Positions 12,636 to 13,433 of a stretch of DNA of 64,000 nt are shown piece after piece. The stretch's first letter is position 1, and each line of letters starts with the position of its first letter. The notes under the pieces are model-generated. The model made no database searches. It was given only the letters and a program-made list of their open reading frames with translations, and was not told the DNA's origin. The DNA lies in the sequence record PQ249397, one strand, 5' to 3'. The position numbers and the translations under genes were made by a program. Source of the DNA: Escherichia phage Pu-Krd-SF3.

Positions 12636-12969
12636 AATTTTGGTTTTATGTGTAGGATTAATTTCATTTTCTGCGTTAGCAGATATATCATATTCTGAAG
12701 TTAGAGAGTATGTAAACCGTACTGCCGCGGATTATTGTGGGAAAAATAAAGCATGCCAAGCTGAATTTGCGCAGAAATTAATATATGCATATAAAGACGG
12801 AGAAAGAGATAAATCAAGCAGATACAAGAACGATACTTTATTAAAACGATATGCTAAAAAGTGGAATACCTTAGAATGTTCAGTTGCGGAGGAGAAAGAT
12901 AAAGCCGCTTGTCATTCAATGGTTGACCGTTTGGTAGATTCTTATAATCGAGGATTGAGTACTAAATGA
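12628..12969 (+). CDS. small secreted Cys-containing protein (113 aa); T4 vs position
   Basis: Signal peptide MTKILVLCVGLISFSALA; ORF track. Confidence 0.6.
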   Translation: MTKILVLCVGLISFSALADISYSEVREYVNRTAADYCGKNKACQAEFAQKLIYAYKDGERDKSSRYKNDTLLKRYAKKWNTLECSVAEEKDKAACHSMVDRLVDSYNRGLSTK

Positions 12970-13433
12970 TTGTAAAATATATCAAGGGCGATATTGTCGC
13001 CCTTTTCACTGAAGGTAAAACTATTGCGCATGGATGCAATTGTTTTCATACTATTGGTTCAGGCGTAGCGGGTCAATTAACCAAAGCTTTCCCTAAAATT
13101 TTGGAAGCTGATAAATTACAGACTGAATGGGGTGATGTAACTAAACTTGGTTCTTATTCAGTCTATGAAAAATACTTTAGGACTCATAAAGCTTACTGCT
13201 TTAATCTTTATACTCAATTTCAACCAGGGCCAAATTTTGAATATTCCGCTTTAATGAATTGTATGTTAGAATTAAATGAGTTTGGTGAAAATAAACTGAT
13301 TAAACCTACAATCTATATGCCTAGGATTGGTGCAGGCATAGGTAAAGGGAACTGGGATATTATTGAGGGGATTTTAGATACATATTCCTCTAAATTAGAA
13401 ATTGTGATTGTTGATTGGGAACCATTATTATGA
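12966..13433 (+). CDS. macro-domain protein (ADP-ribose binding/hydrolase fold); T4 tk.4 position
   Basis: KGDIVAL…IAHGCNCFHTIGSGVAGQL aligns with the macro-domain motif (IVNAAN…GGGVxGAI); PTIYMPRIGAGIGKGNW aligns with the second glycine-rich motif (FPAISTGIYGYP). Confidence 0.72.
   Translation: MIVKYIKGDIVALFTEGKTIAHGCNCFHTIGSGVAGQLTKAFPKILEADKLQTEWGDVTKLGSYSVYEKYFRTHKAYCFNLYTQFQPGPNFEYSALMNCMLELNEFGENKLIKPTIYMPRIGAGIGKGNWDIIEGILDTYSSKLEIVIVDWEPLL

Follow-up and report, generated by a model that had tools for sequence, protein, structure and literature searches.

The tk.4 gene and its neighbourhood

What does a macro-domain protein do at the tk.4 position of a T4-like phage? DarTG systems block phages by ADP-ribosylating phage DNA, and the initial annotation of the window (the whole stretch of 64,000 nucleotides that was analysed) proposed that the protein is a candidate counter-defence or regulatory de-ADP-ribosylase with DarT as a possible target, and that no function had been described for a phage macro domain at this position. 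The open reading frame in question (12966-13433, + strand) is intact, running from ATG to TGA over 155 codons, and its product shares 152 of 155 residues with T4 Tk.4 (98% over 155/155), the two proteins being of equal length. The three substitutions, given as window residue, position and T4 residue, are T15A, T19N and I30M, and every conserved active-site residue of T4 Tk.4/AdfM is identical in the window protein. The gene lies between vs and tk.3, as it does in T4 and in the annotation of Escherichia phage Pu-Krd-SF4 (PQ759884); the surrounding sequence of about 3 kb is 100% identical to that of Pu-Krd-SF4 and approximately 98% identical to that of phage T4. The window belongs to a Tequatrovirus. 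The T4 gene order together with the 152/155 identity establishes that the label "tk.4 position" was correct and that the protein is an ortholog of T4 Tk.4/AdfM. The features of the locus are as follows.

11621..14592, + strand: gene block regB, vs.1, vs, tk.4, tk.3, tk.2, tk.1, tk; co-oriented and tightly packed, in T4 order
12950..12954, + strand: GAGGA, putative Shine-Dalgarno-like sequence 11 nt before the tk.4 ATG, within the 3' end of vs
12966..12969, + strand: ATGA, overlap of the tk.4 start and vs stop codons (read from the sequence)
12966..13433, + strand: tk.4 / adfM coding sequence; 155 amino acids, one macro domain and no second domain
13430..13433, + strand: ATGA, overlap of the tk.4 stop and tk.3 start codons (sequence and PQ759884 annotation)

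The overlapping start and stop codons at both ends of the gene suggest that tk.4 is translationally coupled. A scan of 11000-15200 found no terminator-like site on the + strand, and promoter-like sites were no more frequent there than expected (13 observed, 16.4 expected), the sole notable promoter consensus site being that at 11565-11593, preceding regB. It is therefore from the gene packing that we infer early co-transcription of the block from regB to tk, with tk.4 included. On the minus strand, a terminator-like hairpin was noted at 12984-13004, within the 5' end of tk.4. Five of the 8 bp in its stem are G-C pairs, and a T-rich run comes after the stem; on the + strand the hairpin corresponds to the inverted repeat AAGGGCGATATTGTCGCCCTT in codons 7-13.

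Previous evidence on tk.4 from T4 and T2

The counter-DarTG2 role of tk.4 is already known from T4 genetics, which are described in the HIDEN-SEQ preprint of November 2025 (10.1101/2025.11.20.689424). According to the part of that preprint available to us, a T4 transposon library was used to infect a DarTG2-expressing host, tk.4 emerged as the only significant T4 hit in the presence of DarTG2, and T4 became more sensitive to this system once tk.4 was cleanly knocked out. In the same text the authors reported that Tk.4 is structurally similar to the macrodomain of M. tuberculosis DarG, renamed the gene adfM (anti-DarT factor Macrodomain), and inferred that T4 Tk.4 removes ADP-ribose enzymatically (10.1101/2025.11.20.689424); their result answers a question raised in an earlier paper. 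The view that no function had been described at this position is thus out of date, and the proposal of a counter-defence de-ADP-ribosylase that might be directed against DarT is supported by the same T4 genetics, as far as the available text goes.

In a RIL-seq preprint on T2, the tk.4 transcript is reported as an interaction partner of the host sRNA ArcZ, together with Hfq, and the Tk.4 protein was detected in T2-infected cells (10.64898/2026.06.19.733364). The label "putative thymidine kinase" given there to T2 tk.4 is a mislabel. Several GenBank records carry the gene as "macro domain protein", "Poa1p-like family protein" or "phosphatase", and in the CmdTAC paper and the Thoeris II preprint macrodomains are mentioned but Tk.4 is not.

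Tk.4 is a single-domain member of the macro superfamily

The initial annotation identified the protein from two hallmark motifs, and three lines of evidence agree with that identification. First, Tk.4 residues 22-132 match the Pfam Macro profile (PF01661) over positions 2-113 of 118, with 25 bits against a gathering cut-off of 22 (E=2e-5); the protein also matches PHROG 335, which is labelled "phosphatase" (E=1.5e-63). Second, a search of a large protein collection yielded 139 homologs, 98 of which were aligned for conservation counts, and the most conserved parts of Tk.4 across these 98 are the two glycine-loop motifs. Third, an AlphaFold2 model built from the homolog alignment (pLDDT 94.8, pTM 0.91) has the three-layer alpha/beta/alpha macro fold.

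When the profile of the Tk.4-family alignment was compared with solved macrodomains, the matches were BT1257 (E=1e-26), SCO6735 (2.6e-22), TARG1 (7e-21), Poa1p (4e-18), M. tuberculosis DarG (6e-18) and T. aquaticus DarG (1e-16). A Foldseek comparison of the model with the PDB placed TARG1 (E=1e-9), Poa1p (2e-9), BT1257 and DarG in the top ranks. The comparison of a predicted structure with known macrodomains, which had been put forward as a check, thus returned a macro fold with DarG among the leading matches. The nearest neighbours in both sequence and structure belong to the ALC1-like class (TARG1, DarG, SCO6735/BT1257 and Poa1p) and not to the MacroD-like, PARG-like or macroH2A-like classes. 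Based on these comparisons, Tk.4 is a macro-superfamily protein of the ALC1-like class that consists of a single domain, and it is predicted to bind ADP-ribose.

The predicted active site has Gln in place of the DarG/TARG1 lysine

Three elements of the predicted active site were located in the window.

13029..13070, + strand: predicted ADP-ribose-binding loop 1, codons H22-A35 (HGCNCFHTIGSGVA), with the conserved Asn25 and the first glycine loop G31-S-G33-V-A35
13215..13217, + strand: codon for Gln84, which aligns with the catalytic lysines K84 of TARG1 and K80 of DarG
13320..13355, + strand: second glycine loop, predicted to bind diphosphate, codons P119-W130 (PRIGAGIGKGNW), with P119-x-I-G-A-G124

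All three are strongly conserved among the 98 homologs. In loop 1, G33 and A35 occur in 98, G23 and N25 in 97 and H22 in 96; N25 aligns with N27 of SCO6735 and with the DarG Asn. In loop 2, which aligns with the PRIGCGL sequence of TARG1, SCO6735 and BT1257, the counts are 98 for P119 and G122, 97 for I121, and 96 for G124 and W130. Gln84 is present in 98/98. Its column was assigned in two ways, by the family profile against PDB chains and by a MAFFT alignment with solved homologs and PhiKZ gp104, and the residue found there is Gln in SCO6735 (Q85) and BT1257 and Lys in TARG1, M. tuberculosis DarG, T. aquaticus DarG and gp104.

One of the three substitutions relative to T4 falls next to these elements. 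Ile30 (13053-13055), just before the first glycine loop, is Met in T4 and in 87 of the 98 homologs, and Met is also found at this position in TARG1, DarG and PhiKZ gp104; within the Tk.4 alignment, Ile occurs there in the window sequence only.

Comparison with SCO6735 and TARG1

The closest parallel for a Gln at this position is provided by SCO6735 of Streptomyces coelicolor and BT1257 of Bacteroides thetaiotaomicron (PDB 5E3B, 2FG1, 2AFC), which are 20-29% identical to Tk.4. SCO6735 cleaves DarT-made thymidine-ADP-ribose on DNA and, in Streptomyces, counteracts DarT as an antitoxin; activity on both DNA and protein substrates is lost in the Q85A mutant, and the N27S mutant is nearly inactive (PMC9411070). 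The mechanism proposed for SCO6735 is lysine-independent, with Asn27 holding Gln85, which positions the distal ribose while an activated water reacts (PMC9411070). Tk.4 has the equivalents Gln84, Asn25 and His22, and the alignment suggests that Gln84 and Asn25 are arranged as in SCO6735. The likeness is not complete, however. A long "mobile loop" was called characteristic of the SCO6735/BT1257 subclass, and Lys34 of SCO6735 and the mobile loop with its Lys89 were linked to DNA handling by the authors (PMC9411070). In the Tk.4 family, Tk.4 included, 5-6 residues are missing from the loop that follows the Gln, so that there is no mobile-loop Lys89, and the Lys34 column is occupied by Ser32 in Tk.4. 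In addition, SCO6735 and BT1257 are cellular proteins, whereas Tk.4 is a phage counter-defence gene product.

Human TARG1/OARD1 has the ALC1-like fold in common with Tk.4, and the available part of one report states that TARG1 too reverses thymidine-linked DNA ADP-ribosylation (PMC8501950). Its catalytic dyad Lys84/Asp125, however, corresponds to Gln84/Gly126 in Tk.4.

TARG1 and SCO6735 also strip Glu/Asp-linked ADP-ribose from proteins (PMC9411070), and with such close relatives one could envisage that Tk.4 erases protein marks, either those placed on host proteins by phage Alt, ModA and ModB or those placed on phage proteins by host ART toxins. The phage does encode ModA and ModB (window 59184-60418). 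Alt, ModA and ModB modify arginine, however, and arginine-linked ADP-ribose is removed by enzymes of the ARH/DraG type; we know of no macrodomain that removes it. The initial annotation had described nudE and modA/modB as lying alongside tk.4. These genes are present, but they are 5.8 kb and approximately 46 kb away, respectively, and so loose an association has no bearing on function. Moreover, the HIDEN-SEQ screen, in the text available, gives tk.4 no phenotype beyond DarTG2. We therefore regard the erasure of protein marks as a highly unlikely main role, and the suggestion that Tk.4 reverses the phage's own ADP-ribosylation for regulatory purposes found no support.

Tk.4 lies outside the DarG family and is distinct from PhiKZ gp104

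The preprint on T4 likened Tk.4 to DarG, and the DarG macrodomains (M. tuberculosis, 5M3I; T. aquaticus, 5M31/5M3E; T. africanus DarTG, 7OMU) are 18-22% identical to Tk.4. Assignment of Tk.4 to the DarG family was considered and rejected, because four defining features of that family were tested and all four failed. On the DarG equivalog model NF048014 (NCBIfam), for which the cut-off is 250 bits, Tk.4 scored 26.6, and the match was confined to profile positions 2-146 of 338, the macrodomain half. The catalytic Lys80 of DarG, which follows FPTK, is Gln84 in Tk.4. The C-terminal DarT-binding domain is absent, and there is no adjacent darT, the neighbouring genes being vs and tk.3. Tk.4 may nevertheless resemble DarG in outcome, while its chemistry, by analogy, is probably like that of SCO6735/BT1257 rather than that of DarG.

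The same features bear on whether Tk.4 is an enzyme at all. Some macro domains merely bind ADP-ribose, and a Tk.4 that acted as a reader or sponge of ADP-ribose, or as a direct inhibitor of DarT2, would be compatible with the missing DarG/TARG1 Lys. Yet the residues essential for SCO6735 catalysis (Gln, Asn and the glycine loops) are invariant in the Tk.4 family, and a protein of 155 amino acids with one domain offers no counterpart of the DarT-binding domain. A non-catalytic role is, in our judgment, extremely improbable.

The name AdfM has also been given to PhiKZ gp104, an orphan phage macrodomain that counters DarTG2 and removes DarT2-made ADP-ribose from DNA in vitro (Cell Rep 2026, PMC13309987). 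The two proteins differ in several respects. They are 19% identical (pairwise E=0.016); gp104 keeps the catalytic Lys of the DarG FPTK motif and matches M. tuberculosis DarG with E=9e-25, whereas Tk.4 has Gln; and the PADLOC DarG model gives 132.9 bits for gp104 but 32.6 for Tk.4. Furthermore, gp104 is imported into the phage nucleus, whereas T4-type phages have no phage nucleus. A single AdfM family comprising both proteins was rejected on account of the 19% identity and the different catalytic residues. The name thus covers two distinct macrodomain subfamilies, the T4 type and that of PhiKZ gp104, which probably represent independent recruitments.

A model for escape from DarTG2

We consider it likely, by analogy with the homologs described above, that this ortholog of T4 tk.4, an orphan macrodomain, removes thymidine ADP-ribose made by DarT2 and thereby enables the phage to escape DarTG2. 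According to this model, tk.4 would be expressed from the early/middle gene block between regB and tk. As the phage DNA replicates, host DarT2 would ADP-ribosylate the thymidine of its single-stranded TNTC motifs, and Tk.4 would bind the thymidine-linked ADP-ribose in the cleft between its two glycine loops. Gln84, held by Asn25, would position the distal ribose, and a water molecule would do the chemistry, hydrolysing the N-glycosidic bond between ribose and thymine and freeing ADP-ribose. The repaired template could then be replicated again, and the phage would escape DarTG2. Water-mediated chemistry is proposed here because Tk.4 has no equivalent of the catalytic Lys found in DarG and TARG1, and since it lacks a DarT-binding domain, it would be expected to protect by catalysis alone. 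Homology is the ground on which both the hydrolysis of thymidine-linked ADP-ribose on DNA and the role of Gln84 are put forward for the T4-type protein. Several findings count against the mechanism: the DarG score of 26.6 instead of 250 bits, the lack of the DarG Lys and DarT-binding domain, the lack of Lys34 of SCO6735 and of its longer mobile loop with Lys89, the equally close structural neighbour Poa1p, and the Ile30 of the window protein next to loop 1; the T4 genetics, moreover, come from a preprint.

More tentatively, and with slightly more doubt than confidence, T4-type AdfM could be a Gln-type thymidine-ADP-ribose hydrolase that was recruited independently of the Lys-type AdfM of PhiKZ. 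With a Gln-type site and no Lys, the removal of thymidine-ADP-ribose would be lysine-independent and water-mediated. Such an enzyme might be tuned to T-even DNA, in which the C of TNTC is glucosyl-hydroxymethyl-cytosine, and it might accept further substrates, for example ADP-ribose-1''-phosphate or Glu/Asp-linked protein ADP-ribose. With its invariant Gln in place of the DarG/TARG1 Lys, Tk.4, a small and well-behaved phage protein, may be useful as a second case in which ADP-ribose is taken off thymidine without a catalytic lysine.

T-even phages layer their countermeasures, with AdfA and AdfN acting against DarTG1 and Tk.4/AdfM against DarTG2; AdfN of T4 seems to be adapted to T-even DNA. 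For gene annotation, "anti-DarTG2 macrodomain AdfM" should replace "phosphatase" and "hypothetical protein".

Distribution of Tk.4 homologs and the possibility of soluble substrates

Homologs of Tk.4 were detected by tblastn (E<=1e-5) in 2747 of 50,697 phage records. Among the matches listed are T4-like phages that infect Escherichia, Klebsiella, Salmonella, Acinetobacter, Aeromonas and Vibrio, as well as Escherichia and Salmonella phages with genomes of approximately 86-88 kb, 137-145 kb and 158 kb, Pseudomonas phages of approximately 92 kb, and a Bacillus phage. Three homologs labelled as coming from bacterial MAGs (P0061, P0083 and P0093) all lie on T4-like phage contigs, whose genes include Rnl1, Pnkp, Dda and dCMP deaminase, or NAMPT and Nudix; the retrieved Tk.4 family is therefore essentially phage-borne. 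No DarT was found beside the Tk.4 homolog in these three contexts, a result that neither supports nor contradicts the model. On the P0093 contig the Tk.4 homolog is downstream of a cluster for NAD salvage (a nucleotidyltransferase of the PolyA_pol family, Nudix and NAMPT) and of an Acb5-family gene, and on a distant T4-like contig (L004, 1927-2397) it adjoins RNA ligase 1, a DUF4326 protein and a Dda-like helicase.

In some related phages the gene adjoins Rnl1 and Pnkp, in others NAD-salvage genes, which is in keeping with a main role like that of yeast Poa1p, an ADP-ribose-1''-phosphate phosphatase, in handling soluble derivatives of ADP-ribose. Tk.4 would then dephosphorylate Appr-1''-p, in connection with RNA repair or 2'-phosphotransferase, or deacetylate O-acetyl-ADP-ribose. 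A comparative survey favours such a role for phage macro domains (PMC9503650), and Poa1p is as close to Tk.4 structurally as the other neighbours and has the H-x-C-N-C motif in common with it. Two residues are important for catalysis in Poa1p: His23 (solved mutant H23A) aligns with Tk.4 His22, and the column of Ser30 (solved mutant S30A) is occupied by Tk.4 Thr29, which is variable (T in 36 of 98 homologs). At the Gln84 column, however, Poa1p has Ser, whereas Gln is invariant in the Tk.4 family. The database labels "phosphatase" and "O-acetyl-ADP-ribose deacetylase" originate from this Poa1p-like reading and are transferred names, and gene order in the early regions of T4-type phages is a weak guide to function. 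Furthermore, the sole phenotype reported for T4 tk.4, in the available text, is specific to DarTG2. We conclude that a main role in processing soluble derivatives is unlikely, although it could be a side activity of a protein whose principal substrate would be DarT2-modified DNA.

Additional observations in the window

An open reading frame of 208 amino acids (53285-53911, + strand) occupies the gene 61.2 position, after spackle, and its C-terminus, QIFNAFMNRG, is identical to the one that the primers for RB69 adfA specify (PMC11257639). This end, together with the gene 61.2 position, indicates that the window also carries a homolog of adfA, the anti-DarTG1 gene.

The coordinate offset between PQ759884 and the window (PQ759884 minus window) falls from 96000 at 12-15 kb to 95999 at 49.3 kb and then to 95998 at 53.3 kb. 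These shifts imply two 1-nt indels, so that PQ759884 is the best match to the window but not byte-identical with it. In the window, uvsX (49475-50656, + strand) is one intact open reading frame of 393 amino acids, whereas two coding sequences are annotated in PQ759884, which suggests a frameshift in uvsX of that record.

Four small genes on the + strand, at 13639-13824 (tk.2), 13821-14009 (tk.1), 15820-16002 and 16005-16199 (the latter two downstream of rI), correspond by position to four T4 coding sequences, all placed in a single PHROG (653) by the T4 record. Their correspondence points to a small paralogous family of proteins of approximately 61-64 amino acids flanking tk.
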